Positions 8,715-35,271 of a stretch of DNA of 64,000 nt are shown piece after piece (the first letter of the stretch is position 1; each line of letters starts with the position of its first letter). Both the position numbers and the translations under genes were made by a program. The stretch lies in IMG/VR virus record IMGVR_UViG_3300020165_002937; one strand, given 5' to 3'. Origin of the DNA: a virus. Under the pieces are notes generated by a model. That model was given only the letters and a program-made list of their open reading frames with translations. It made no database searches and had not been told where the DNA came from.

Positions 8715-11545
8715 TGTCTAAGAAAATAACAATATCATTTAGAGACACAAATTTATTTTCGGGATCTTCCGACACCTTGCGTACATCTCTAGGCGGCGGA
8801 TATTATGATGTGGCAACAACTGATAGCGGCCAAACCGTTAATTTTGTTGATATCAACCCCCCAACCGTGCCCGGTACTACCAGCGATGACTATATCGTCT
8901 ACAAGCGCCGTGACGTCGACGAATCAAGCGCCTTTAAGCATGTCCAAATGAGAAAAGCATATGCCGATGTACCAATCATTGTCCCAATAAGAGAGGATAT
9001 CGTATCATATAATCGAAAGTACCCAATTAGGCTGGCGGGCAATTCAAACAAGATACAAGATGATACACAGTGGCGTTCTCTGCTAATCGGTGGAGTACAC
9101 AAAGGTGTAGCTTACCCGGGTATATTTACAGAAAAAGAATTTGCAGATTATGCTTTTACTTACGAAGCACCTTATTCAAGAAGATCAGCCAAACTGATTT
9201 CAACTGAAGACATTGACCAAATTATAGATATAAACTATAAATATAAATTTTATTTGCCACTGTATGAAAATTTTATAAGTACGAAAAGCGAACTATTAAT
9301 TCCCAATGGCTATATGATGAGCACTTTTAGCGATTCTGATGACGAGACCACAACTTTTGAACACGACACTGATGAATATCCCGCTGGTGTAGAAAATTAT
9401 GTATGGGATTTTATAACGCTCGAAAGAAAAATAGATCCGAATCCGCTTTTAGATACGACTTATTCGGATGATCCAACAAAAGGCGGCTCCTTCACACCTT
9501 ATACGGATGATTCAGGGGAATTTTTTGAAAACCCGTCAGAGCTGGAACTACCTTCTAAAAATTTAAATGAATACCTGACGTCTTCGTTGTTGACAAACCG
9601 TTTGTCATCCGAGACCGAAGGTCAGATAACTTATGCACTACAAAATATATTTTTTGATGAGAAGGCAAACGAAAGGTACATAAAAAGTAACCCTTTTCCA
9701 AGAGGGAACAAATTTCCTTTTTATGTGGAGATTAGCTTTCCTACTGATAATGGCCGCAACACCATTGTTACCAAAGCCGATCGAATGAGCGATCCCGAAA
9801 TGTTAACAACGTTTGATGCCGGCACCAATCCCGAGCAGAGAAAAAAAGCGCTCCCTTTGACTGAGACAATAATCAACGGAGACTTTTCTAGGAAATTTCT
9901 AAAAGTCTTAAAAGAAACTTTTGTGGATAATGTCCCAGAAGTTCCAATCTATAATCACGAATTTATAAAAACTACTGAATATTTTAGTGGCTCCGCTAGC
10001 AATGTTGACACCTTGCTTGAACAATCAGCAAATTCTTATTTAAGGTGCTGTGAATTTTCAGATTTAATGTTGTATGCGTACAGAGATTATACTTCTTTCA
10101 ACAACAATTTATATTTTGTGGGAGACAAGACTAAACTAAACGATGTTGTAAAAGACGGACTGGGAGTGTATAGATATCTAAACACTGACAATTCATTGTT
10201 GTTATTAAAAAAATATCTTCATACGCTCAGAGAAGATTATACTGAGCGCACCGGAACAGACCTGATAGACTATGTTAACTTTTGTAATAGCGCACAAGAC
10301 CCAAAGAGCAACGAAACAATAGCCTATCGAATACAAAAAATAGCTTCCAATCCGGCAGCAGCCGATGCATCTCGCGCCGCATTACAAAACTTCTTTTTTA
10401 TTAATTCAAAGGAACTTGATACACAATTCGGCGGCCGCGGAATCCATTTTACTGACACGCAAGTAAAATACGGCGAGGACTATACTTATATAGTCTATGC
10501 GTATGTGGCAGTGACTGGGTATCGCTACAAAGTAGATAATTTAAAAATATCAAGAATAATTGGCACTACGTTAACCGATGAAGGTGAGCATGACAGATAT
10601 TGTATTGAGTTTTTCGATCCTCTAAGCAATGAGGCGAAAGGAAGCGATTTTCAAATTAATGATGATATGGGCAACGAATTTAGAACGAGCGCCCAGATTA
10701 AAGACTATAACCAGTTTCTTGCAGACTGTAGTTTTAACGTACAGCCTTCAGTGCGAATTAAAGAAATTCCTATTTTTGCTAAAAAAATAAGAGTGCAAGA
10801 TAACCCAGCTACTATATTGGACGTCTCACCTTTTCAAGTAATGGACGATTCTCAAAGAATTGGCTTCTTTATAAATTACGAAACTCAGCTTGAATCAGCA
10901 TATCCAAAAATAATTTTAGAATCAGACGCACAACAAAAAGAATCATATTTATCTTCCAACGATCTTTTAGAGAATGAGGTCGTGACACCCGAGCCAATCT
11001 CAAGAATAAGATACTTTCAGGTATTTAGAACCGAAACACGTCCAACCTCGTATAGAGATTTTGCTGATAAACTTCACCAGACGGTAGATTTAAAAATAGA
11101 AAATACAAAACAAACCTACTCATCTGAGAATTTTTATGATAAGATTAAAACGAATCAAAAATATTATTATTTGTTTAGAGCGATTACAGAGCAAAACACC
11201 TTTGGCCATGTATCAGAAGTTTATGCTGCTGAATTAGTTGATGACGGTGGGTATAAGTATGCAGTATTTAACACCTTGTATGAAGAAGATTTATCAGAAG
11301 ATATATATATTAATACTTCAAAGAATATAAAGAAGTTGATACACATCCAACCCAATTTATCCCAAATCGCCCTAGATACTGAAAATATAGATTTTAACAA
11401 AGATGCATATTCACAATTAAGAAATTTAAATATTGGAACTGCGGAAAGTTTAATTTGGGGCAAGACCTTCAAGCTTAGGTTAACTTCCAAGAAAACTAGC
11501 AAAAAAATAGATTTGAACATTACTTATAACTTGAACAGTGAATAA
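8714..11545 (+). CDS. large hypothetical virion/baseplate protein
   Basis: 943-aa ORF, translationally coupled to the upstream gene, in the structural cluster. Confidence 0.6.
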   Translation: MSKKITISFRDTNLFSGSSDTLRTSLGGGYYDVATTDSGQTVNFVDINPPTVPGTTSDDYIVYKRRDVDESSAFKHVQMRKAYADVPIIVPIREDIVSYNRKYPIRLAGNSNKIQDDTQWRSLLIGGVHKGVAYPGIFTEKEFADYAFTYEAPYSRRSAKLISTEDIDQIIDINYKYKFYLPLYENFISTKSELLIPNGYMMSTFSDSDDETTTFEHDTDEYPAGVENYVWDFITLERKIDPNPLLDTTYSDDPTKGGSFTPYTDDSGEFFENPSELELPSKNLNEYLTSSLLTNRLSSETEGQITYALQNIFFDEKANERYIKSNPFPRGNKFPFYVEISFPTDNGRNTIVTKADRMSDPEMLTTFDAGTNPEQRKKALPLTETIINGDFSRKFLKVLKETFVDNVPEVPIYNHEFIKTTEYFSGSASNVDTLLEQSANSYLRCCEFSDLMLYAYRDYTSFNNNLYFVGDKTKLNDVVKDGLGVYRYLNTDNSLLLLKKYLHTLREDYTERTGTDLIDYVNFCNSAQDPKSNETIAYRIQKIASNPAAADASRAALQNFFFINSKELDTQFGGRGIHFTDTQVKYGEDYTYIVYAYVAVTGYRYKVDNLKISRIIGTTLTDEGEHDRYCIEFFDPLSNEAKGSDFQINDDMGNEFRTSAQIKDYNQFLADCSFNVQPSVRIKEIPIFAKKIRVQDNPATILDVSPFQVMDDSQRIGFFINYETQLESAYPKIILESDAQQKESYLSSNDLLENEVVTPEPISRIRYFQVFRTETRPTSYRDFADKLHQTVDLKIENTKQTYSSENFYDKIKTNQKYYYLFRAITEQNTFGHVSEVYAAELVDDGGYKYAVFNTLYEEDLSEDIYINTSKNIKKLIHIQPNLSQIALDTENIDFNKDAYSQLRNLNIGTAESLIWGKTFKLRLTSKKTSKKIDLNITYNLNSE

Positions 11546-18055: not shown

Positions 18056-21000
18056 GTGAGGTTTGCACACATAAGTGATACTCATATTAAAAATTTAAAG
18101 TATCATTACGAATATAAGGTCATTTTTGAACAATTATATGATACGTTACGAGAGAAAGAGGTGGATTATATAATCCACTGCGGAGATATAGCACATACCA
18201 AAACACAGATCTCTCCAGAGTTCGTGGAGATGTGCTCTGATTTCTTTCGCAACTTAGCTGAAATCGCACCCACATATATTATTTTGGGCAACCACGACGG
18301 CAATTTAAAAAACAGCAGCCGTCAAGACGCTCTCACTCCTATCGCTGAAGCACTAAACCTACCAGATTTGCACATGCTCAAGGACTCTGGTGAAACACAT
18401 ATCGATGATAAGTTTTGCCTTAACGTACTTTCTGTGTTCGATCGCGACAATTGGATCAAGCCAGTAGACACAAGTAAAATTAATATTGCCTTGTATCACG
18501 GTTCTATTTCCAATTGCAAGACTGATATGAACTGGACCATGACGAATGGAGAAGACAGTCTATCTATTTTTGATGATTTCGACTTTGCGATGCTTGGTGA
18601 CATCCACCGACGCCAGTTCCTGGACGAGCACGGCCGTGTATGGTACGCAGGCTCAACAGTTCAGCAGAATCACGGAGAAACAAACGATAAAGGAATTTTA
18701 ATATGGGACATCGAAGACAAAGATGAATGGGAAATTGATCCGATTGTATTTGAAAATCCAAAGCCTTTTATTACGATTGAGCTTACACAGAAAGGAAGAA
18801 TGCCAAAGAATATTTCTATTCCGACTGGTGCTCGTCTTCGTCTCGTTAGCAATAACAATTTGCCGTTAGACACCATGAAGCGCGCTGTCGATATAGCAAA
18901 GCACCGGTTTGTACCTGAGAGTATTTCGTTTTTAAATCGTGCTGCAGGCCAAAGGGGCTCTGTCGAGGCACTGACCGAAGGGTTGAAAGTAGATAATTTA
19001 AGAGACATAGGCATTCAAGAAGAGTTGATTGATGAGTATCTTGTAGGATATGAAATACAACATGAAACCTTAGAAAAGGTCTATGATTTAAATAAGAAAT
19101 ATAACAAACTTGTCGAGAATGACGAAGACATTTCAAGAAATGTCAATTGGAAATTGAAGAATTTTGAGTTTGATAACTTATTTAACTATGGAGAAAAGAA
19201 CAATGTTAACTTTGGTGAACTTGGGGGGATTGTCGGGATCTTTGGTAAAAACTTTTCTGGGAAGAGTAGCATTGTTGACGGCGTGTTGTGGACTCTTTTT
19301 AATTCAACCTCAAAAAATGAACGCAAGAATCTCAATGTTATTAACCAGAACCAAGGGTACGCCCGCGGCAAAGTAGAAATTCAGATTGGTGAAAGAGTTT
19401 TTACAGTTGAAAGAAGGGCAGACAAGTATATCAAGAGGCTGAAGGGTGAAGAGACCCTGGAAGCAAAGACCGATTTAAATTTTGAAGTATATGATATGGT
19501 TTCGGATGAAATAATTTCTCTGAATGGCCTGACCCGGATGCAAACTGACGCCAATATTCGTAAGCAGTTTGGCTCGATTGAAGACTTTTCGGTATCCTCT
19601 CTGTCCTCACAACATGGGGCTCTGTCGTTTATCGATGAAGGCTCAACCCGTAGAAAAGAAATAATTGCCAAATTCTTAGACCTTGAATTGTTCGAAAAGA
19701 AATTTAAATTAGCCAAAGAAGATTCGGTGGATCTCAAGGGCGCCCTCAAGAGGCTAGAAGAAAAAAACTATGACGATGACCTAGTAACAGCTACAGAGAA
19801 TCTATCTGACGTCCGCTCAAACATGCGCGCCAAAAAGCGCACATGCGATAAACTAAAAAGTAATTTAGCGTCTCTTGAGATGGACTGTATCGAAACAGAA
19901 GCAAAGATCGATTCAATCCCGGCTGAAATTATTGACATCTCTAAGATTAATAAAAACATTAGGACTCAAGAGAACCAGATCACATCCTTAAATCTGAAGA
20001 TATTTGAAGATGAAGAGACGTTAAAGACAAAGCAAGGTTTGTATAAAAAAATAGTTGATTTTCTGGATGGCTTTGAGCTTGATGAATTTGAGTTGGCAAG
20101 TCAGAGAATCGCTGATAAAAGAAGGTTCTTGAAGACAAACGAAGCTGAACTAAACAAATTGTTAGACAAGCACAATGAAATAATTAAAAAAGAAAAGCTG
20201 TTGGAAGATCATGAATATGATCCAAATTGTAACTATTGTTGTGAAAATGAGTTCGTCAAAGAAGCGCATTCTGCAGTCGCCCTAAAGAGCGCAGTTGAAT
20301 CAGACCAGAGGATTGCCCTGGAAATGATAAGCTTAATTTCACAGGAAATAAATGAACTTAACCCTGAAGAAGTGGAAACACAATTAAGCAAATATTATAA
20401 AGTAGAAAAGAATAAACATGCTGTCTCCTCTGCGATTGCCGACTTGAACTTGGAGGTTGAAAGAAACAAGAACATGATTCACGTTACAACTACAGAGTTA
20501 GCCGAGTTGGTAGCAAAACGAAACGAATATGAAGAAAACAAAGAAGCAATAGAAAACTTAGAATCTCTGATAGCTCAGCTGAACAAGTTTAATGTTGAAA
20601 TTAAACAAACCAAGAATAAAATTAATTCATGTGAGCAATCGGTACTAGAGTTTGTTAAGTTGGTAGGTTCATACGAACAAAAAATTGAGGGGGTTAATGA
20701 ACAAAAGCAAGAATATAGAGATCTCCAGAGAGAATATGCTGCCTACGATCTATATATGCGAGCTATGCATCCGAACGGAATTGCTTATGATATTATCAAA
20801 AAGAAAATACCGGTTATTAATCAAGAAATAGCGAAGGTATTGGCTAATGTTGTAGATTTTGAAGTTTTCTTTGAAGCTACTGGAAATAAATTTGATATTT
20901 TTATTAAGCATCCTCGGTACGATGAGAGGCCAATAGAAATGGCTTCGGGTGCAGAAAAATCATTAGCAGCTATTGCTATCCGTCTAGCACTTTTAGGTGT

Positions 21001-21214
21001 CTCATCTCTGCCAACCAGCGATATTTTCATACTTGACGAACCTGGCACTGCGCTAGACGAAGATAATATGTCGGGTTTTATTCAGATTTTGGAACTAATT
21101 AAGGTATATTTCAAGAACGTTTTGTTGATCTCTCACCTTGATTCACTCAAAGATTGTGTTGATATGCAAATCGTAATCGAAAAGAAAGACGGATACGCAA
21201 GAGTAAATCAATAG
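18056..21214 (+). CDS. fused SbcD/Mre11 nuclease - SbcC/Rad50 ATPase (T4 gp47-gp46-like)
   Basis: Phosphoesterase motifs SDTH, GDIAH, GNHD and GDIH; Walker A GKNFSGKS; coiled coil with CNYC hook; signature ASGAE; Walker B ILDEP; ISH. Confidence 0.92.
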   Translation: MRFAHISDTHIKNLKYHYEYKVIFEQLYDTLREKEVDYIIHCGDIAHTKTQISPEFVEMCSDFFRNLAEIAPTYIILGNHDGNLKNSSRQDALTPIAEALNLPDLHMLKDSGETHIDDKFCLNVLSVFDRDNWIKPVDTSKINIALYHGSISNCKTDMNWTMTNGEDSLSIFDDFDFAMLGDIHRRQFLDEHGRVWYAGSTVQQNHGETNDKGILIWDIEDKDEWEIDPIVFENPKPFITIELTQKGRMPKNISIPTGARLRLVSNNNLPLDTMKRAVDIAKHRFVPESISFLNRAAGQRGSVEALTEGLKVDNLRDIGIQEELIDEYLVGYEIQHETLEKVYDLNKKYNKLVENDEDISRNVNWKLKNFEFDNLFNYGEKNNVNFGELGGIVGIFGKNFSGKSSIVDGVLWTLFNSTSKNERKNLNVINQNQGYARGKVEIQIGERVFTVERRADKYIKRLKGEETLEAKTDLNFEVYDMVSDEIISLNGLTRMQTDANIRKQFGSIEDFSVSSLSSQHGALSFIDEGSTRRKEIIAKFLDLELFEKKFKLAKEDSVDLKGALKRLEEKNYDDDLVTATENLSDVRSNMRAKKRTCDKLKSNLASLEMDCIETEAKIDSIPAEIIDISKINKNIRTQENQITSLNLKIFEDEETLKTKQGLYKKIVDFLDGFELDEFELASQRIADKRRFLKTNEAELNKLLDKHNEIIKKEKLLEDHEYDPNCNYCCENEFVKEAHSAVALKSAVESDQRIALEMISLISQEINELNPEEVETQLSKYYKVEKNKHAVSSAIADLNLEVERNKNMIHVTTTELAELVAKRNEYEENKEAIENLESLIAQLNKFNVEIKQTKNKINSCEQSVLEFVKLVGSYEQKIEGVNEQKQEYRDLQREYAAYDLYMRAMHPNGIAYDIIKKKIPVINQEIAKVLANVVDFEVFFEATGNKFDIFIKHPRYDERPIEMASGAEKSLAAIAIRLALLGVSSLPTSDIFILDEPGTALDEDNMSGFIQILELIKVYFKNVLLISHLDSLKDCVDMQIVIEKKDGYARVNQ

Positions 21215-21225
21215 GAGAAGCTGCT

Positions 21226-22620
21226 GTGAAAATCAAAAAGTTAGAACTTACGGAGATTATTAAAGAAGAAATCAATAAATTTATCACTGAAGATGATTTT
21301 GATGATTACATGCAGTCGATCACGACAACGTCTAAGGCCGCCCAACGCACCCAAGGCGCCGCAAACAAAGCAACTGCACCTATGAGGGCAACTCGCCAAT
21401 TCCTAATTAACGAATGTGGAAATCAAAAGATACTCCGCGCTATGTTCGGACACGAGAATGAGCGAGATATTGATTTTAATCTTGCTGAAAAAGATTGGCC
21501 AGAATATGGACCTGTATCGGAACAGGCTGAAGATTTTTATTTCGCTGTCAGTAATCTCGTTACCGACTGGGTTGGTGATGACGAGTATGATGGTCGCTAC
21601 AATCCCAATACCACATTTCAATATTTAGCTCCAACGCGCGCAAGGTCGTCTTATGGTTCAATGATTGTGAACTCGGACGGTAACGGCCCACTGCTTGTCA
21701 AATGTAAGCTTACAATAGACAAATACATCGGACTAAACCCGGATTCTGGACTCAAGCCGCTTGAAGAAAGACAGCCAAATTTATATACAGAAGGAATTGC
21801 TAAAATGAAGATTAGAAGGTCACAACTTGAAGATATTATCAAAGAAGAAGTATCAGCCATGGTAGAGGAGTTTGGAGACGACTCACCCTTCCGAATGCGC
21901 GACATGGTGCCACCAAAGGTTCGTGGAAAATTTAAAGATACATTTACCAAGATACCCCACCCCGGACGCGCGCACTTGATGGGTAAAGAAAGAAGACCTA
22001 ACGCTCAAGAAAAAGCTGCATGGAAAGCAGCCGGTGGCTATCTTAGTGTATTCGATAAGCCGGCGATAGCTCAATTTCTTGAAGACGCAGGACTGTATGA
22101 CCCCGAATTCGGGACCAGCTCTCTCGAAAAATATATGGATAATGTAAAATACGCTATCAAGGGTGATCGCTTGGGCCGCCAAATTAACTCTCTCGTCGAT
22201 GCACTGGCGTTGGCTAATAAGACAGGCTCTCGACGCGGCCACTTAAAAACCGCCAAGAAAAAATCCAATAAGCCGCCACAATTTACAAGAGAGTCGATTG
22301 AACGAATCACCAAAGAAGAGCTTTCGAGTGTGCTCCATGAGCGCTCTAAAAGTTTCACATATAAAGTTATCGAAGATGAATTTGATGGCGGACCAAAGGT
22401 AGAAGTCGAGGGAATTGATAAAACTTTTGAGCAAATGATAGAGGAATTAGAAGGCAAAACCTTAGACTTTGGTGACGAACCACCCTTTAAATTTAGTATC
22501 GATTTGTTTGATGGTGAGCCATGGAAGATGATCGTCAACGGCCAGGCACCGGCATATATTGAAATGTGGGCAGAAATGAACGGATTCGAAGCAGAGGAAA
22601 CCGGAAAGGCATATTACTAA
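21226..22620 (+). CDS. hypothetical modular protein with three copies of the IIKEE leader (putative internal head protein)
   Basis: MKIKKLELTEIIKEE at the start, MKIRRSQLEDIIKEE at 21805, FTRESIERITKEE at 22282; SD AGGAG before GTG. Confidence 0.65.
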   Translation: MKIKKLELTEIIKEEINKFITEDDFDDYMQSITTTSKAAQRTQGAANKATAPMRATRQFLINECGNQKILRAMFGHENERDIDFNLAEKDWPEYGPVSEQAEDFYFAVSNLVTDWVGDDEYDGRYNPNTTFQYLAPTRARSSYGSMIVNSDGNGPLLVKCKLTIDKYIGLNPDSGLKPLEERQPNLYTEGIAKMKIRRSQLEDIIKEEVSAMVEEFGDDSPFRMRDMVPPKVRGKFKDTFTKIPHPGRAHLMGKERRPNAQEKAAWKAAGGYLSVFDKPAIAQFLEDAGLYDPEFGTSSLEKYMDNVKYAIKGDRLGRQINSLVDALALANKTGSRRGHLKTAKKKSNKPPQFTRESIERITKEELSSVLHERSKSFTYKVIEDEFDGGPKVEVEGIDKTFEQMIEELEGKTLDFGDEPPFKFSIDLFDGEPWKMIVNGQAPAYIEMWAEMNGFEAEETGKAYY

Positions 22621-22621
22621 A

Positions 22622-23260
22622 ATGAAACTGTTAATAGAAAATTGGAACAAGTTTTTGAACGAGAAACAAAATGCCGCATCGATGGTAGCTTCCGCTTTTC
22701 AGAATACAGATCCGAAATATCTAGAAGACACTCTGTCGACCCGCACAGCCGGCCCCGGCGCCGCTGGTAGCACTTTTTCCGGTCCAACTTCTATCCAAGA
22801 TTTAATACAAGCCGGTTGGCAACCACACCCTCATCCGGCAATAAACACATCTATTGGAGCCATTGGGTTTAAGGCCGCAATTCCCGGTGTGTTAGGAATC
22901 GCTGATATTGACGAAGCACCAGACGAAGTTGTGTTTCAACCAGCACACGGTGGCAAAGCAATGACTAAAGAGCCAAATCCGCAAACTGGTGAACCAGAAG
23001 TTTTGGCAGAGGTTGTTGCAGATATTCCTGCTGCGGCCCGTGAAGTCAGGCACACAACTTTAATCATTGGGCCATCTAGAGAAGATAAAGAAAAACTGCA
23101 AGTTTGGACTTTTCACCCCGGTGATCCAACGCCGCAACTTCCCGAAATAACAATGCGAGAAGTTAAAGAAAGATACAACACTACCGAAGATCGCATTCGT
23201 GGCAGTAAACAAGATGCTGTTGATATGGGATACGGCTTTGTAAAGCACGGTAAAATTTAA
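22622..23260 (+). CDS. hypothetical protein with MKLLIENWNKFLNE leader (putative internal head protein)
   Basis: 212 aa; leader shared with 24411..24848; C-terminal HTTLIIGP...VWTFHPGDP. Confidence 0.65.
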   Translation: MKLLIENWNKFLNEKQNAASMVASAFQNTDPKYLEDTLSTRTAGPGAAGSTFSGPTSIQDLIQAGWQPHPHPAINTSIGAIGFKAAIPGVLGIADIDEAPDEVVFQPAHGGKAMTKEPNPQTGEPEVLAEVVADIPAAAREVRHTTLIIGPSREDKEKLQVWTFHPGDPTPQLPEITMREVKERYNTTEDRIRGSKQDAVDMGYGFVKHGKI

Positions 23261-23271
23261 GGAAACTAACA

Positions 23272-24414
23272 ATGTCAGACGAAAAAGAAGATAAAAACGA
23301 ATTTGATTTTCTGCCTCCCGCAGAACCACCTCCCGCGTTTGCGCAGGAAAAAGACAGTTACCACGAAGAAGTAGATGCAGAAGATTTCGGTATGGTTGAA
23401 GACTTCGGATTACAGATGGAATACTCTGATGAAGATTTACTCCCCGAGAATACAGCACCCTCATCTATCAATGTTGGTTTTGTCGGTGTCGGCGGTGGAG
23501 GCAATAAAATGGCTAATGCTTTTATTGAGCTTGGCTTCAACAAAACATTGCTTGTCAATACAACAGGCAAAGACATTCCAAAGAATGTCGAAGAGGACCA
23601 CGTTGTCCTTATCCCCGATTCTGATGGAATCGGCAAGAACACTGAATATGGAAAAGAGGTTTTAAGTCAAAATGGCGCGATTGTTGAAGATGCCCTGCGT
23701 ATCAAACTCGGTAAAGTTGATTGGTTATTCGTCCTTGCTGGCGGCGGCGGCGGTACCGGTAGTAGTGTTACCGCTCTGCATCCTGTCTTTGAGCGTTACA
23801 TGCGCTCTGTGCAATCGAGTGGCAAGGTCGTTTACATAGTCTCTTGGCCAACAGCACAAGAAAATCTTAACCCCACAATCGCTCGTAATGCGTTGACGCT
23901 GGCAAATGACGTCACCAAGTATCCGCATATCATTTTAGACAATGAACGAGCCACACGATTACTGCGCGGCCGCATTGGCATGCTTGGCATGTACCCAGTC
24001 GCCAACACAACTTTTGCTAAGTCACTTGCCCAAGTGTTAAAGCTCTCCACCGAGGATTCACCGATTCAATCTTTTGACAGCAAGGATTTGGAAACATGTT
24101 TGGGCAATGACGGTCGTGCCTTCTTAGGCTCAACTATGATAAAGGATCCAAATACTGCTAAGCTTGGATCGGTGATTCTCCATAACTGTATGAATAGGTC
24201 AGCGTGCCCCCCACCGAAAGGTAAGGCCGCGGCAGGTTCATTGGTTTTGGTAGTCTCGGAAGAGATGGTGGCTGACCCTAAAGTCAGTAAGAATATTGAG
24301 TCGGCAATCGCTTATGTCGGCGGTCGATGCGAGACACTTTTCTCTGGCGTTTACGTCCGAAAGAATGTGCCTGGATTGATTGCGATACTAAGTATGAATG
24401 GATTAGCGACATGA
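23272..24414 (+). CDS. tubulin/FtsZ-family GTPase (phage PhuZ/TubZ-like)
   Basis: GVGGGGNK, DGIGKN, signature AGGGGGTGS, LDNE and T7-loop-like SFDSKD; ~65-aa acidic N-terminal extension. Confidence 0.9.
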   Translation: MSDEKEDKNEFDFLPPAEPPPAFAQEKDSYHEEVDAEDFGMVEDFGLQMEYSDEDLLPENTAPSSINVGFVGVGGGGNKMANAFIELGFNKTLLVNTTGKDIPKNVEEDHVVLIPDSDGIGKNTEYGKEVLSQNGAIVEDALRIKLGKVDWLFVLAGGGGGTGSSVTALHPVFERYMRSVQSSGKVVYIVSWPTAQENLNPTIARNALTLANDVTKYPHIILDNERATRLLRGRIGMLGMYPVANTTFAKSLAQVLKLSTEDSPIQSFDSKDLETCLGNDGRAFLGSTMIKDPNTAKLGSVILHNCMNRSACPPPKGKAAAGSLVLVVSEEMVADPKVSKNIESAIAYVGGRCETLFSGVYVRKNVPGLIAILSMNGLAT

Positions 24415-24848
24415 AACAACTATTTGAAAATTGGAACAGGTATTTGAAAGAAGATGAGCAGCAATCGCTAGCGATTGACATGTCTCCTGCGCGCTCGCCT
24501 GAAGAAGTAGCGGAATTAAAATTTAATACATTCCTTGAAAAACACGGCGATGAACTTAAGCAAGAATTTGAAGATTCAATCGATGGACCTGAAGCTTCAG
24601 GAACATTCGGCTATATGGAAGAAATTTTCGATGATTATTTTCTTCGATCCGCCGGCGATTATCACAAAGATGAGGCGTATAGAAAACTGATTCAAGTCAT
24701 TGATCATGAAATCAACGACTTTTACAGTTATATGGAAAAAGGACGAACCACTTTTGACAAGGGTTTGAAATTTTTATTTATGAGAGTATTAGAAGCGCAT
24801 GATGAATTGAACTGGGACAAAACAAATAAAATACCAACAGAAAACTAA
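24411..24848 (+). CDS. cassette gene 1: acidic hypothetical protein with MKQLFENWNRYLKE leader
   Basis: ATG overlaps the tubulin TGA (ATGA); the stop TAA lies inside repeat copy 2. The ORF-track start 24327 is judged too early. Confidence 0.7.
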   Translation: MKQLFENWNRYLKEDEQQSLAIDMSPARSPEEVAELKFNTFLEKHGDELKQEFEDSIDGPEASGTFGYMEEIFDDYFLRSAGDYHKDEAYRKLIQVIDHEINDFYSYMEKGRTTFDKGLKFLFMRVLEAHDELNWDKTNKIPTEN

Positions 24849-24877
24849 GTATGAATGGATTAGCAACATAGGAGATT

Positions 24878-25120
24878 ATGATGAAAATTACAAAACAACA
24901 GCTTAAACAAATTATCAAAGAAGAATTAGCCGAGGTAGGTCAATATGGATTAGGGGTGCCGGGAGGTTCCACAAGTTCCGTAGCAGATCCACACACCGCC
25001 GCAATAGAAGCTCTTGCAGATTACATACGCAACAGACTACCGTACAGAGAAGATCAAAAGCTTTTAGAACTTTTACAAACTGCTGAAGAAGCGGTTATTG
25101 ACTTTGAGAACGAACTATAA
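24878..25120 (+). CDS. cassette gene 2: hypothetical protein with MKITKQQLKQIIKEE leader
   Basis: SD AGGAG at 24870; the stop TAA lies inside repeat copy 3. Confidence 0.75.
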   Translation: MMKITKQQLKQIIKEELAEVGQYGLGVPGGSTSSVADPHTAAIEALADYIRNRLPYREDQKLLELLQTAEEAVIDFENEL

Positions 25121-25139
25121 GTATGAATGGATTAGCAAC

Positions 25140-25373
25140 ATGAAGATTACAAAACAACAACTTAAACAGATTATTAAGGAAGAGATAGAAGGACTACCGG
25201 AAGCCGGCAGCTTTACGCGCCGATCTACAATCACCAAAATCATCCGCGACGAAATCATCGGTCTTATGGAGGATCAGGGGTTTTTCGAGATGGGGGCGAT
25301 TCCGCAATCCGTTATTAAAGCTGTTGAAAATACCTCCTTACGTATCGCCGACACAGTGGAAGGAATGGATTAA
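25140..25373 (+). CDS. cassette gene 3: hypothetical protein with MKITKQQLKQIIKEE leader
   Basis: ATG at the end of repeat copy 3; stop inside copy 4. Confidence 0.7.
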   Translation: MKITKQQLKQIIKEEIEGLPEAGSFTRRSTITKIIRDEIIGLMEDQGFFEMGAIPQSVIKAVENTSLRIADTVEGMD

Positions 25374-25377
25374 CAAC

Positions 25378-25791
25378 ATGAAGATTACAAAACAACAACT
25401 TAAGCAGATTATTAAGGAAGAGTTAAAGGATTACACGCGCGGCGAAGCCCGCAGTCCTGAAATTCAGATCCCGGGCTATGGCATTATGACTGTTGAGGGG
25501 GTTAAAAGAAAATTAGCTGTTATGTTACAAGAGGCTGCCGATGATGCAACCAAAGACCCACCAAGCTACTCGCACCTCAATGGCGGCGTCATCCAGGCGC
25601 TCCACCAAGCATTAAGAGATCACTATCAAAATTCCGAAGAATCCCTTGAAGAAAAGATCAAGGAAGTTGAAGGTGGATATAAGGCGACCACTAAGAGCGG
25701 TAGACCATTATCAAAAAAGCCAAAGACAAAGAAAGGCGCTCAAGCCCAACTCGCAGCAGTGGAGATATCAAAAGCCAAGAGAGGTAAGTGA
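25378..25791 (+). CDS. cassette gene 4: MKITKQQLKQIIKEE leader plus basic C-terminal module
   Basis: ATG at the end of repeat copy 4; Lys-rich C-terminus after SLEE. Confidence 0.7.
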   Translation: MKITKQQLKQIIKEELKDYTRGEARSPEIQIPGYGIMTVEGVKRKLAVMLQEAADDATKDPPSYSHLNGGVIQALHQALRDHYQNSEESLEEKIKEVEGGYKATTKSGRPLSKKPKTKKGAQAQLAAVEISKAKRGK

Positions 25792-25991
25792 TGGCAGCTG
25801 CAACAAAAGCTTTCGTGGATACATGGTTGGCAAAACTTACTTCCCGCAAGCTGATGGTGTGGCTTACAGCGACCGGCCTAACCTTTACGGGGCATGTTAC
25901 TAGCGAAGACTGGGTGTTAATCTCCGCTATATATATTGGGGGCCAAACTGTTATTGATGGGTTGGCTCGTTTAAAAGGGTACAATGATTAA
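25791..25991 (+). CDS. putative holin
   Basis: 66 aa with two hydrophobic segments after SRKL; SD GAGG; precedes spanin-like genes. Confidence 0.55.
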   Translation: MAAATKAFVDTWLAKLTSRKLMVWLTATGLTFTGHVTSEDWVLISAIYIGGQTVIDGLARLKGYND

Positions 25992-26367: not shown

Positions 26368-26773
26368 ACTGCTTTTAGTGCTTAGTCTTTCAGCGAATGC
26401 AGTTGAGCCGGCCAAGTTTACCATCTTGGAATATAAGGCGCCAGCACCATTCGCAGGAGTTTTGTTCGACGAAAAGGCCATGGCTAAAATGCTGGCAGAT
26501 TATGATATATACAAGTATTCATGCGATATAAAAACTGATTATCAATTAAAGATCCAAAGAGAAGAATATGACTTTAAGTTGAAAAACTTAAAAATAGAAC
26601 ATAAATCCTTAACAGATGAGTATGATTTGTTTATAATGCAGAAGGATAAAGAAATTAATCTTTTATCTAGCGCCTTAAAAAAAACCTCCCCCCGCCACAA
26701 ATGGTTGTATTTTGCTGGTGGAATCCTCATTGGCACTGCCGCCTCGTATGGCGCTTATAAGACTCTACAATGA
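26357..26773 (+). CDS. exported coiled-coil protein with C-terminal TM (possible spanin partner)
   Basis: Signal peptide MLLKLLLVLSLSANA, coiled coil, and C-terminal hydrophobic WLYFAGGILIGTAASYGAY. Confidence 0.5.
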   Translation: MLLKLLLVLSLSANAVEPAKFTILEYKAPAPFAGVLFDEKAMAKMLADYDIYKYSCDIKTDYQLKIQREEYDFKLKNLKIEHKSLTDEYDLFIMQKDKEINLLSSALKKTSPRHKWLYFAGGILIGTAASYGAYKTLQ

Positions 26774-27162
26774 CCAACAAAAATTTAAATAAAATAGCAG
26801 CTATAGAAAAAGCCATCAGCGAAAAGTATGGAGATGAAGCAATTCAAAATCCTCACACAAATTGGTCAGAGGAAAAAGAGAAAATGTATTTAGAACAGCT
26901 AGGTGTGTTTTATAGTAAAAGTCGCAAGTCCGATGCTTGGGAAGAAAAAATAGACATTGATGGCGTTAAAGTGTCAAAAAAACTACTTAGTAGAGAATCT
27001 TTAGCAAATTGTCCTGTCTGCGGAAATCTTCCTAAGAAATCACTGGATGATGTGTGTCTTGTAAAATTTGAATGTTGCAGTTATTGTTACTACAAATATG
27101 TTGAAGACAGAGAAAAAAGATGGTCAACCGGTTGGCGCCCCGAAATTAAAAAGGATAAATAA
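26770..27162 (+). CDS. hypothetical Cys-rich (putative Zn-binding) protein
   Basis: CPVC...C...CCSYC; ATGA overlap with the upstream gene. Confidence 0.65.
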   Translation: MTNKNLNKIAAIEKAISEKYGDEAIQNPHTNWSEEKEKMYLEQLGVFYSKSRKSDAWEEKIDIDGVKVSKKLLSRESLANCPVCGNLPKKSLDDVCLVKFECCSYCYYKYVEDREKRWSTGWRPEIKKDK

Positions 27163-27166
27163 AAAA

Positions 27167-27712
27167 ATGGCTACAGTATATGAAATTATTCAAGGTCTCT
27201 CGCAAGCAGCAGCAAATGCTTATGACGGAGCTTTAAACGAAGAAGGTGAGTCTGTGTTAGCCGGCTTGAACCGGGAGGATGGAAATCCCCTTATTGATCG
27301 CCGGGTAATAGATGGATTTAATGTCAGGTTTTTCGGAAACAAAATGATTCTGGCATATCATTCGGAGACCAAATTAAAAGAAGTCTACAGGGGCGGCTTT
27401 GAAGATAATATTGACAGTACGTTAAACGATGTAGCCTCTTTTTTAAAGAAAGAATATAAAAAGATTACTAAAAATGGTGTCTCACTGAAGCAGGAAGGTG
27501 AGACCGATATTCGTGTGGAAGCCACCAGCCGAGTAAGAACTTGGGTGACAGCCGTTCGCACTTATATCATTGAGGATGTGAGTACCGAAACAACAGTTCC
27601 TCAATATTCCTCTGATTCTTTGCAAGATGGATACAAAAAGTTTCTTGAACTTGGCGACTGGAAGGGTAAGCGCCCCGACAACGATACGCGAACTAAGAAC
27701 GGCGATCAATAA
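27167..27712 (+). CDS. hypothetical protein
   Basis: Likely start MATVYEIIQG at 27167 (AAGGA upstream); in frame with the ORF-track call. Confidence 0.65.
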   Translation: MATVYEIIQGLSQAAANAYDGALNEEGESVLAGLNREDGNPLIDRRVIDGFNVRFFGNKMILAYHSETKLKEVYRGGFEDNIDSTLNDVASFLKKEYKKITKNGVSLKQEGETDIRVEATSRVRTWVTAVRTYIIEDVSTETTVPQYSSDSLQDGYKKFLELGDWKGKRPDNDTRTKNGDQ

Positions 27713-27714
27713 TA

Positions 27715-28263
27715 ATGAAAATTTCTAAGCAAGAATTGAGACGCATTGTCTTAGAAGAGTTTATGTTAGAAGAGGGTATCGAGACAGAGGCCCTTTCTCC
27801 CGAAAAATTTGATCAGATGATGAAGAATATCAAAAGTAATCGTAAAGGTAGTAGGCCAATTCCGCCTCCACCAGAAGTACCCCGACCAAAAGGAAAAGGT
27901 CTCCCCCACGAAGATACAATGCCTATGGATATCCCAGCAGACGATGCCCCAGAAAGTGAATATTCCGGCTTCCAAGATCGCCCGGGCGCACATCTAGAAG
28001 ATCAGATATTCTCCCTAATAAAAGGTATGTCACCGGAGGACGTCCAGGGGTTATTCCAGGATGTGTTTGAAATGTTGCCTGGGATTGAAATGCAGCAACA
28101 AGAGCCCGACGCAAAACCTTCTACGGAATATGGCGGCGAAGAATTTGAACTCCGTCAACGACAAGGTAGAATTGCCGGTATCAGAGAGGTACTTGAACTT
28201 GGTGACCTGATGGCCCTTATTCGCGAAGTGATCAAAGAGGAAGATAACCTTAAAAATGTATGA
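27715..28263 (+). CDS. hypothetical protein with MKISKQELRRIVLEE leader
   Basis: Leader family motif, plus a second copy-like LIREVIKEE near the C-terminus; overlaps the terminase start. Confidence 0.65.
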   Translation: MKISKQELRRIVLEEFMLEEGIETEALSPEKFDQMMKNIKSNRKGSRPIPPPPEVPRPKGKGLPHEDTMPMDIPADDAPESEYSGFQDRPGAHLEDQIFSLIKGMSPEDVQGLFQDVFEMLPGIEMQQQEPDAKPSTEYGGEEFELRQRQGRIAGIREVLELGDLMALIREVIKEEDNLKNV

Positions 28264-33241: not shown

Positions 33242-33568
33242 ATGGACTTAATAACTTTTATATTATGCGCTTACGGGCTCACTCAAATACTAGTATATAG
33301 CGACATGCCGATGCTAAACAGGCTACGACCCTCAAAAGAAGCAGCAGGCGGATATGGCAAGGTTTTTCACTGCCCCATGTGCATGGGTTTTCATGTTGGC
33401 TGGCTTTTGATGTTACTTTCTCCATTTACAGAACTATTTAATTTTGACGTTTCCGTGTTAAATTTCTTCCTTCTTGGGTGGCTGTCGTCGGGAACATCGT
33501 ACGTATTAAACATAATCTTCGGCGACGAAGGAATAAATTTTCAAAAAACAGAGGTAAACAAATTATGA
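33242..33568 (+). CDS. DUF1360-like small membrane protein
   Basis: Start MDLITFILCAYGLT; FHCPMCMGFHVG CxxC motif flanked by TM segments. Confidence 0.6.
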   Translation: MDLITFILCAYGLTQILVYSDMPMLNRLRPSKEAAGGYGKVFHCPMCMGFHVGWLLMLLSPFTELFNFDVSVLNFFLLGWLSSGTSYVLNIIFGDEGINFQKTEVNKL

Positions 33569-33912
33569 TTATAACAAAATCCGAACTTAGAAAAATATTG
33601 AACGAAGAGATCGCTACGGCTTTAAAAGAAGCGCCAGAACCACCGCCCGAAAACAAGGTACCACAAACTGTAACCGTAACGCTCGAAAGAATGCAGGCTA
33701 TGCTTATGACCCAAATACAACAACTTGATGACTATAGCGAATTAGTTCCTTTTCTTGAGGGAGTACTCACCATGATCGAGAACGCAAACGAGAAAGATTT
33801 TACACAGTCTGAAAAAATCAGAACTTATCTTGATTTTGCTAATAGGTTCCGCAATCGTTCTAAGGATGTCCAACGGCAGGGCTCTCAAACCTCTGAGGTG
33901 CCTACAAAATGA
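33565..33912 (+). CDS. hypothetical protein with MIITKSELRKILNEE leader
   Basis: ATGA overlap, SD GAGGT at 33551; leader family motif. Confidence 0.7.
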   Translation: MIITKSELRKILNEEIATALKEAPEPPPENKVPQTVTVTLERMQAMLMTQIQQLDDYSELVPFLEGVLTMIENANEKDFTQSEKIRTYLDFANRFRNRSKDVQRQGSQTSEVPTK

Positions 33913-33979: not shown

Positions 33980-34606
33980 ATGGGTCAGAAACTTTTAAGA
34001 GAATATTACGAGCTATGTGAAGGCGGAGTATGCCAAGATCTGCTAACGGAAGCCGAGAAGAAGTTTGTTGCTGAAGGTGGCATGATCTTGACTGGCAAAC
34101 TTCAAGAAGGTGGCGTCGTAAACGGCAACCGTAGAATGTACCCGCCTGAAGTTATCATACGAGAAGTAAACAGCTATAAGAAATTAGTTTCAGAACACCG
34201 AGCACTGGGCGAACTGGACCACCCCGAAAACAATGTTGTTTCTTTGGAGAGAGTGTCCCACCGAGTCACTGAGATTTGGATGGATGGCAATGTGGCTATG
34301 GGCAAGGTTCAAGTAATGAATACCCCAGCTGGCAAAATTTTGCAAGAATTAGTTATTGGTGGCTGTAAAATGGGAATTTCATCCCGCGGCATGGGTTCAG
34401 TAAGAGAAGAAAAAGATGTCACCATTGTTGAAGATGACTTTCAACTCATATGTTTTGATTTTGTGTCTGAACCATCGACACCTAATGCATTTATGATGCA
34501 AGAATCCAAAAACTTTCAAAACAAAATAATGACGAAAGAAGATAAGATTAACCGTCTGATGAATGATATCTTAATTGATGAACTGGTGAACGATGAAAAA
34601 AAATGA
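33980..34606 (+). CDS. prohead protease (T4 gp21-like)
   Basis: NGNRRMY, ALGELDHP (His), GISSRGMGS (Ser) and DFVSEPS motifs. Confidence 0.93.
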   Translation: MGQKLLREYYELCEGGVCQDLLTEAEKKFVAEGGMILTGKLQEGGVVNGNRRMYPPEVIIREVNSYKKLVSEHRALGELDHPENNVVSLERVSHRVTEIWMDGNVAMGKVQVMNTPAGKILQELVIGGCKMGISSRGMGSVREEKDVTIVEDDFQLICFDFVSEPSTPNAFMMQESKNFQNKIMTKEDKINRLMNDILIDELVNDEKK

Positions 34607-35019: not shown

Positions 35020-35271
35020 ATGGCTAAAAGTAGAAAAAAAGCTAACGTAATCGTCAAGTCAAAGGAATGCCGAGGCAATCACGACAAGATGATAAGAAAG
35101 TTTATCAAGAAAACAAAAAAAGAAAAGATTGTCGAAGAGATTAAAGACCGCAAAAGATACAAAAAGCCTTCAGAAGCGAAGAAACAAAAGCGCCTTAAGG
35201 CAGAAAGACTTCGTAAGAGAGAAGAGCGAAAAAGAATAAGAGCACAAGAAAGACGCAATAGAAAAAAATAG
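35020..35271 (+). CDS. rpsU: ribosomal protein bS21 homologue
   Basis: 83 aa and highly basic; DKMIRKFIKKTKKEKIVEEIKDRKRYKKPSEAKK matches the bS21 pattern (F..K..K..I..E...R..Y.KPS). Confidence 0.8.
   Translation: MAKSRKKANVIVKSKECRGNHDKMIRKFIKKTKKEKIVEEIKDRKRYKKPSEAKKQKRLKAERLRKREERKRIRAQERRNRKK

Follow-up and report, generated by a model that had tools for sequence, protein, structure and literature searches.

In T4-type phages, ORFans are flanked by PeSL (promoter-early stem-loop) motifs, which show conservation over about 100 bp, and gain or loss of one unit leaves a single chimeric motif, with mini-circles also reported (PMC2839356; PMC4122927). In the model put forward for these phages, a unit is deleted, or freed as a circle, by recombination between two motifs, and is inserted when the reaction goes the other way (PMC2839356, PMC4122927). 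Here we describe a locus in the IMG/VR virus record IMGVR_UViG_3300020165_002937, of which a stretch of 64,000 nt (the window; coordinates count from its first letter) was analysed. It lies behind a gene for a 380-aa GTPase of the tubulin/FtsZ family (23272..24414), and the last 8 codons and stop codon of this gene are the source of a repeat, R, which copies the final 23-28 nt of the tubulin open reading frame (ORF). We conclude, with a probability that we put at about 60%, that the interval between the tubulin gene and the next conserved gene is a hyperplastic region, in which small genes (cassettes) are shuffled by phage homologous recombination at portable junctions.

The likeness to PeSL regions is that in both a T4-type phage has a hyperplastic region between conserved core genes, with a short motif (about 60-100 nt) flanking ORFans and bringing expression signals to its gene. 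One-unit insertions and deletions, replacements and reordering have their breakpoints at the motif, and homologous recombination is proposed with no integrase. With regard to differences, the PeSL motif is a sigma70-like early promoter with a stem-loop terminator, and neither a sigma70-like promoter nor a terminator-like site was found at the junctions in the window, where the motif is instead the coding 3' end of a core gene plus the translation start and leader codons of a cassette. PeSL motifs are spread over many regions whereas R is at one locus only, and mini-circles are known for PeSL whereas the tubulin array is known from assembled sequence. The tubulin array extends PeSL-type shuffling from promoter-terminator motifs to coding junctions. 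The orphan toxin-tip arrays of CDI and Rhs systems also have cassettes 3' of a main gene, each behind a short copy of main-gene sequence that enables homologous recombination. There it is the tip of the main protein that is replaced, whereas here the end of the ORF and its stop codon are copied, the tubulin is unchanged and the cassettes are separate genes.

The tubulin gene product matches the Pfam Tubulin family (PF00091) with E=1.8e-8 and 35.3 bits, above the cut-off of 33, its best solved relatives are FtsZ chains (E=2e-11), and the glycines of a GGGTGS-type signature are invariant in the tubulin alignment. The 23-nt end of the gene (24390-24412) is repeated with 0 mismatches at 24847-24869 and 25119-25141, a match given by none of 100 dinucleotide-preserving shuffles, and is present in degraded form at 25361-25379, as had been noticed in a preliminary description of this DNA. 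Copy 1 of R (24387..24412) is the tubulin 3' end itself, with its TGA stop overlapping the ATG of cassette c1. In copy 2 (24844..24869) lies the TAA stop of c1, and an 11-nt insert with a Shine-Dalgarno (SD) sequence comes next (24870-24880). Copy 3 (25116..25141) provides the TAA stop of c2, with the c3 ATG directly after it, and the degenerate copy 4 (25361..25379) has mismatches at 3 of 19 positions. The spacings are 457, 272 and about 238 nt, and a single small gene lies between each pair of successive copies. In the tubulin frame the copies read ..SMNGLAT and then TGA, TAG and TGA, while copy 4 read in frame 2 is the C-terminus of c3 (..GMD-stop).

The four cassettes are c1 (24411..24848, 145 aa, W-type leader at 24411-24452), c2 (24881..25120, 79 aa, K-type leader at 24881-24925), c3 (25140..25373, 77 aa, K-type leader at 25140-25184) and c4 (25378..25791, 137 aa, K-type leader at 25378-25422). 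The stops of the first three are inside the next R (TAA at 24846-24848, 25118-25120 and 25371-25373), and the starts are at 24411, in an ATGA overlap with the tubulin stop, at 24881, after the SD insert, and at 25140 and 25378. These coordinates confirm the arrangement first reported, with one gene per repeat interval, a stop in the next repeat and a start at or after the repeat end. The bodies were also said to be unrelated, and indeed BLASTP among those of c2, c3 and c4 gave no similarity. The further statement that all cassettes share a leader has to be corrected, as c1 has the W type and c2-c4 the K type, and there are at least three leader types overall.

The body of c1 is found only in this strain group: the identical protein is on 11 contigs, and with other loci only its first 40-65 nt are in common. 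There are partial homologues of c4 in five loci (L011, L016, L022, L043 and L070). c3 is a real conserved family, with full-length matches to 53 protein clusters in marine metagenomes, and its members often end in ..GMD or ..EMD because the ORF runs into a mutated R. In the alignment of this family some members have 20-25-residue insertions between leader and body, and the C-termini vary. Pfam, PHROGs and the ESM Atlas gave nothing usable on the function of c1-c4, and were unhelpful for ten long cassettes of relatives, except for a weak P-loop match (AAA_33) in L080.

R is a true copy of tubulin coding sequence. We found 149 relatives in IMG/VR and retained 80 loci, with tubulins 86-98% identical, and the C-terminal tail ..VPGLIAILSMNGL.. 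is kept as protein in all 80. In the most distant loci the ..ILSMNGL.. tail has synonymous changes and different last residues, and the tubulin copy is therefore the constrained original. Internal copies of R, 1-5 per locus, are present in 33 of the 67 loci with the canonical tubulin end, but in only one of the 13 with a divergent end, where the copy is the variant that goes with its downstream gene. Such copies either carry 0-2 mismatches or are missing altogether, there being hardly any intermediates, and their left borders vary, from 23 to 53 nt. The longest, in L004 (3891-3943), reaches 53 nt into tubulin and has its own left border and a microhomology fusion to a truncated gene; it is an independent duplication. 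At one polymorphic site internal copies match the local tubulin copy above expectation (Fisher p=0.011, the loci being non-independent), which is a weak sign of conversion.

R is also confined to this position. In 846 kb of related loci there are 70 copies at tubulin ends, 56 in the interval plus 4 in L004, and about 3 elsewhere. Several of the relatives' contigs are 187-196 kb and rated complete, and in the five complete genomes that were searched (CheckV 100%) every copy of R is in the cluster behind tubulin in four of them, and there is none in the fifth, which has a divergent tubulin end. The search for further copies in the rest of the genome that was proposed at the outset gave none outside the tubulin cluster in these relatives. 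Sub-motifs of R counted in the window and a complete relative were not found outside this locus, and the possibility of a generic regulatory motif was rejected on this basis (the T4 late-promoter octamer was also counted). Of 100 IMG/VR stretches that contain the exact 19-mer, one has it in an unrelated gene, about the chance expectation. This match, in L092, is inside a 667-aa ORF and was rejected as an R outside the lineage. Other sequences recur 5' of cassettes that have no R (L014:8457-8486 and 9114-9143; L043/L050 near 8356 and 8782). These may be second junction types or heavily changed copies of R, of a kind missed by an ungapped search.

The relatives differ greatly in number, order and content of cassettes, and the proposal of an array of exchangeable cargo, which an invariant gene set would have contradicted, is in this respect upheld. 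Between tubulin and the next conserved gene lie 10 to 5177 bp, and there are 75 distinct versions of the locus with 282 cassette ORFs, which fall into 187 types when types are defined at >=50% identity. Directly behind tubulin (rank 1) there are 58 different types in 74 loci, and 39 of 48 recurrent types vary both in rank and in their pair of neighbours. Cassette bodies range from about 45 to 400 aa. By leader the ORFs are K (113), W (46), an Arg/Lys-rich "R-type" (32) or members of two conserved small families (27 and 15), with 70 having none. Seven further architectures each recur across different metagenomes.

In L074 (7136-7801) the tubulin tail is altered, there is no R at the gene end, and directly behind it is a Cys-rich 222-aa ORF with two CxxC pairs on the N-terminal side, which has no Pfam match and might be a homing-endonuclease-like insertion. 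In L080 (7122-8027) and L190 (6214-7203) tubulin is followed by a P-loop protein of about 300-330 aa with weak AAA_33/Zeta_toxin matches and a W- or K-like start. Such a P-loop gene after tubulin is a feature of the most distant relatives and of a locus whose tubulin is 53% identical, and may be an older arrangement.

The boundaries of shared sequence show where exchange takes place. For most loci homology to the window is limited to patches of 60-90 nt that comprise R and leader (24844-24924, 25118-25184 and 25363-25422). The c2 unit is common only to L024 and L049, in both of which it is directly behind tubulin, and the stretch in common extends precisely from one R to the next (24844-25144). 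The c3 unit is shared from R to R with L046/L064, at rank 1 there but at rank 3 in the window and in L014. Over all pairs of loci 87% of the right ends of high-scoring segment pairs fall between -45 and +70 nt relative to a cassette start, most of them where the leader ends, against 25.5% at random, and 20% of left ends are in the 30 nt 5' of a start, against 5.7% at random. Crossovers are also found inside leaders and cassette bodies. There are loci that differ by one unit: the window is L049 plus c1, L016 is L011 plus one cassette, and L056 is of the L034 type plus one cassette. Order may also be permuted, with c2-W-K-R-type in L049 and c2-R-type-K-W in L024. One body may bear a K or a W leader, and R-type leaders are joined to K-type bodies at a ..KEE motif.

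The machinery available is consistent with homologous recombination. There was no match to tyrosine recombinases (PF00589) or serine recombinases (PF00239) in the five complete relatives, with controls matched in 14 of 14 genomes, and none of either kind among the profile matches for the 64-kb window. A Rad51/RecA-like (UvsX-like) gene is present in all five complete relatives, and the window encodes a fused SbcD/SbcC-like (T4 gp47/gp46-like) recombination nuclease (18056..21214; Pfam Metallophos, AAA_23 and SMC_N), a candidate component of the machinery. The suggestion that phage recombination may be the driver, in the absence of an integrase, has held up, and we take it as likely.

Taking as observed the anatomy of the array, the confinement of R, the variation in the population and the positions of breakpoints, we infer a recombination pathway, with circles, as follows. 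The portable homology would be a composite junction of about 60-90 nt, made up of R, then nothing or a short SD spacer, and about 45 nt of leader codons. Recombination between two junctions of one genome would delete a unit or free it as a circle, and a unit that recombined with an R, be it the one that ends the tubulin gene or one further into the array, would be inserted with R on both sides; in this way copies of the 3' end of a gene would accumulate downstream of that gene. R has stop codons in two frames that would close the upstream ORF, and the next start is at the end of R, in an ATGA overlap or after the SD spacer, so that a unit could be expressed wherever it is inserted. Homologous recombination by the phage itself, with a microhomology event now and then, would account for the gain, loss and reordering of small accessory genes.

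Several points weigh against this reading. The shuffling is read from assembled loci, with recombinant junctions, circles and variants within a population deduced from them, and assemblers could cross between strains at shared patches and so inflate the apparent permutation. Among second cassettes only 37% have R in front of them, and at the third and fourth places about 23%, and much of the shuffling uses other joints. R copies are near-intact or absent, which fits selection on a functional R as well as it fits fast turnover. There is a third variable region (26770 to 27176) without a duplicated end of the upstream gene, and tubulins of 44-53% identity have no such repeats behind them, which means that the mechanism is not a general one. 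At 23-28 nt, R alone is short for efficient homologous recombination as known in T4. The argument therefore rests on R plus leader, and the leader differs between types. For the proposed role of the leaders, which we take up below, it counts against us that leader genes cluster around tubulin and not in the head module, that a K-like leader is also on the gene before terminase (27715), and that some proteins have an internal second leader (at 21805 in the window, and in the metagenome protein P0063).

The K leader common to c2-c4 is 15 residues long (MKITK..), and the W leader of c1 (24411), with ..ENW.., is in common with the gene at 22622, a 212-aa ORF of the region upstream of tubulin. Leader codons have 0.33 differences per site at position 3 and 0.10 at positions 1 and 2, and the leader peptide is therefore under selection. 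K and W leaders have no sequence relation, yet have the same hydrophobic-x-Glu ending: [ILVM]-x-E is at residues 12-14 of 96 of 103 K leaders and 33 of 40 W leaders, and at residues 16-18 of all 28 R-type leaders, against a background of 11 in 190. A 464-aa ORF (21226-22620) opens with a K leader, has a second one inside, at 21805, and looks like two cassettes fused in frame; P0063, of 234 aa, likewise has a second leader. In the complete relative G003 (L081-L090), at about 98.6-111.6 kb, there are seven small proteins that all start MKVGD..., with no conserved junction in the 30 nt upstream of their genes.

T4 gp21 cleaves after hydrophobic-x-Glu-type motifs, and the window encodes a gp21-type head maturation (prohead) protease (33980..34606; PHROG 207, E=4.8e-53) that is a candidate enzyme for cutting cassette leaders. 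Immediately 5' of it is a small gene with a K-like leader (33565..33912). The T4 internal proteins IPI, IPII and IPIII, of which T-even phages have diverse and poorly conserved sets, are a close parallel, being otherwise unrelated small proteins that have in common only a 10-aa capsid-targeting sequence, a short N-terminal leader ending hydrophobic-x-Glu (PMC3012670, PMC9026906). In both cases a gp21-type protease is encoded and the set of proteins differs strongly between related phages. There are differences, in that our leaders, which come in three types or more, measure 14-18 aa and have no homology to the T4 sequence, the genes are around tubulin, and packaging and leader cleavage are predicted from sequence. 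From the shared ending, the protease, the leader beside it and the T4 parallel, the leaders may be T4-like capsid-targeting and protease-cleavage signals, with any body joined to one being delivered to the same place; we put the chance of this at somewhat under even.

A stronger version of our reading would make the tubulin 3' end a dedicated capture site that is independent of any recombinase, at which leader-tagged cargo bound for one destination is stacked. R would be kept up actively, whether through selection or through conversion from the static copy in the tubulin gene, and cargo would be exchanged among co-infecting marine phages. R is upstream of 6% of cassettes at rank >=7, down from the frequencies given above for ranks 2 to 4, and on our main reading, too, this fall fits entry at or near the tubulin end. 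The preliminary description held that the most distal copy is the most decayed; this is so in the window, but across relatives decay has no trend with distance from tubulin (Spearman 0.05, p=0.58), and there is therefore either fast turnover or upkeep of R by selection or conversion. The destination would be the prohead, as for the T4 internal proteins, or possibly the tubulin filament. What suggests the second option is that there are leader-bearing genes on either side of tubulin, even where tubulin is only about 50% identical, and such starts may reflect a tubulin-related role. We think a dedicated capture site unlikely.

It could also be that R is kept for expression, as a relay for translational coupling or some other RNA signal, with recombination being a by-product. 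R does close two frames, and a six-codon mini-ORF (MNGLAT) begins 2 nt past the upstream stop and finishes on the following start, although we would expect the mini-ORF stop to be near-automatic, since T in front of a purine-rich SD, or of a Lys codon, makes a stop. Mostly the upstream stop is in R, at the first TAA in 25 of 59, at later stops in the same frame in 8 and in the tubulin frame in 4. The direct form of R has no SD sequence, and the phage encodes a ribosomal protein S21-like gene. The lack of promoters and terminators between genes fits one transcript, and internal copies still have few mismatches, or are absent, although they do not code for tubulin. Against this, R is nowhere else in 190-kb genomes with hundreds of gene junctions, is missing from most cassette junctions of the region itself and is absent where the tubulin end differs, and it has no RNA structure. 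We regard expression as an improbable reason for the presence of R.

Slightly less probable again is tandem duplication with divergence, in which cassettes are paralogues from units that start in the tubulin end, with R and leader kept by conversion or selection. A unit starting within the tubulin end would directly yield copies of R, and L004 shows such an event, with its own border. The match of internal copies to the local tubulin copy at one site and the purifying selection on leader peptides would also be expected. It is difficult on this basis to account for bodies that have no similarity and such a range of lengths, for four or five unrelated leader types that all come after R, or for identical bodies with different leaders. 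The same cassette is found at different ranks with other neighbours in close relatives, and in the window the internal R copies have A where the tubulin copy has G.

The preliminary description favoured an integron-like array, with the tubulin 3' end as an att-like site for serial insertion of single-gene cassettes. As a site-specific system, this would have R recognised by a dedicated recombinase, with polarised growth at the tubulin end. There is a likeness to integrons in the array of single, mostly promoterless ORFs, each with one repeat, beside a fixed site, in the sharp conservation of R and its confinement to one locus, and in content that varies between relatives. New units are enriched at the proximal end, and the concentration of R-bounded cassettes beside tubulin (from 37% at rank 2 down to 6% at rank >=7) is in line with the earlier expectation. 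The differences weigh against such a system. There is no IntI, nor any tyrosine or serine recombinase, in the five complete relatives, and R is a copy of a coding end and not an imperfect palindrome like attC: folding of the four junctions gave no hairpin or inverted repeat (z-scores 0.57, -1.35, 0.77 and 0.77, a range of -1.35 to +0.77). The left border varies, and breakpoints are at leader ends and inside bodies. One body is found behind different junction forms and leaders. Strictly serial growth with progressive decay does not agree with the lack of a decay gradient among recognisable copies, nor an att-like site with the low frequency of R before second and later cassettes. An integron-like system is very improbable, and the attribution to one should be dropped.

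Misassembly of mixed strains as the source of the repeats and orders can for practical purposes be set aside. All the data are metagenome assemblies, and the array runs off the end of contig L188, but ENA assemblies made independently agree with it (L189 with 99.95% identity over 23759-25732 and L188 with 98.3% over 21411-25036), which settles the question of an assembly artefact raised earlier. In addition, c1 is on 11 contigs, the seven other architectures recur in different metagenomes, and exact repeats within a genome are no longer than 30 nt.

If the reading as shuffling at portable junctions is right, the 75 versions of one locus are a natural example, at population scale, of large lytic phages trading accessory genes without an integrase. 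The end of a slowly evolving core gene and a conserved gene start would together provide both portable homology and a ready stop/start adaptor. Proteins co-injected with DNA are the usual place to seek anti-defence functions. If the leaders are capsid-targeting signals, the locus would be a large and fast-evolving reservoir of proteins injected with the DNA, and junction plus leader would lend themselves naturally to the loading of such phages with foreign proteins. Were the capture-site view to be true, nature would have in this locus an "integron" for packaged or filament-bound effectors that works without an integrase.

There is a second variable region 5' of tubulin (21226..23260), which in the window comprises the 464-aa and 212-aa ORFs, and the interval from SbcCD to tubulin is 3-2061 bp in relatives. 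In L004 (21-62 and 871-912) and L047 (5462-5503 and 5953-5994) the signature seen behind tubulin recurs with another gene, in that the SbcCD 3' end with its SD is duplicated before tubulin, and the second copy in L047 (5953-5994) is a hybrid of R and the SbcCD end, a junction which shows that there has been exchange between the regions upstream and downstream of tubulin. The SbcCD-end duplication is in only these 2 loci. A duplicated end of the upstream gene as a general rule was rejected, given the 2 loci for SbcCD and none at 26770/27176 or behind distant tubulins. Two more presence/absence regions lie between 26770 and the terminase gene (26770-28260), with K-leader genes in some relatives and no duplicated end of the upstream gene.

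With regard to the phage itself, it is an abundant, uncultured marine T4-like type of about 195 kb, and we class it as a far-T4-like marine phage. One strand (+) carries every gene of the window, including all of the features given above, and the head genes include a T4-type portal (Portal_T4, PF07230, E=3.6e-76), a T4-type TerL (large terminase) and a gp23-type capsid protein. A tblastn search with the tubulin against 50,697 phage records gave no match, and the closest cultured phages are distant, with portals no more than 39% identical (Flavobacterium phage immuto and Microcystis phage Mel-JY01). The first conserved gene 3' of the array, and the right border of the variable region, encodes 67 aa (25788..25991) and is kept in every locus that reaches it, with 56-98% identity; it has no Pfam or PHROG match, and the label "holin" given to it earlier is tentative. 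Finally, at 35020-35271 there is a gene for a very basic 83-aa protein that matches phage ribosomal protein S21 (PHROG 21469, E=5e-4), and this may bear on host identity and on translation starts without an SD sequence.

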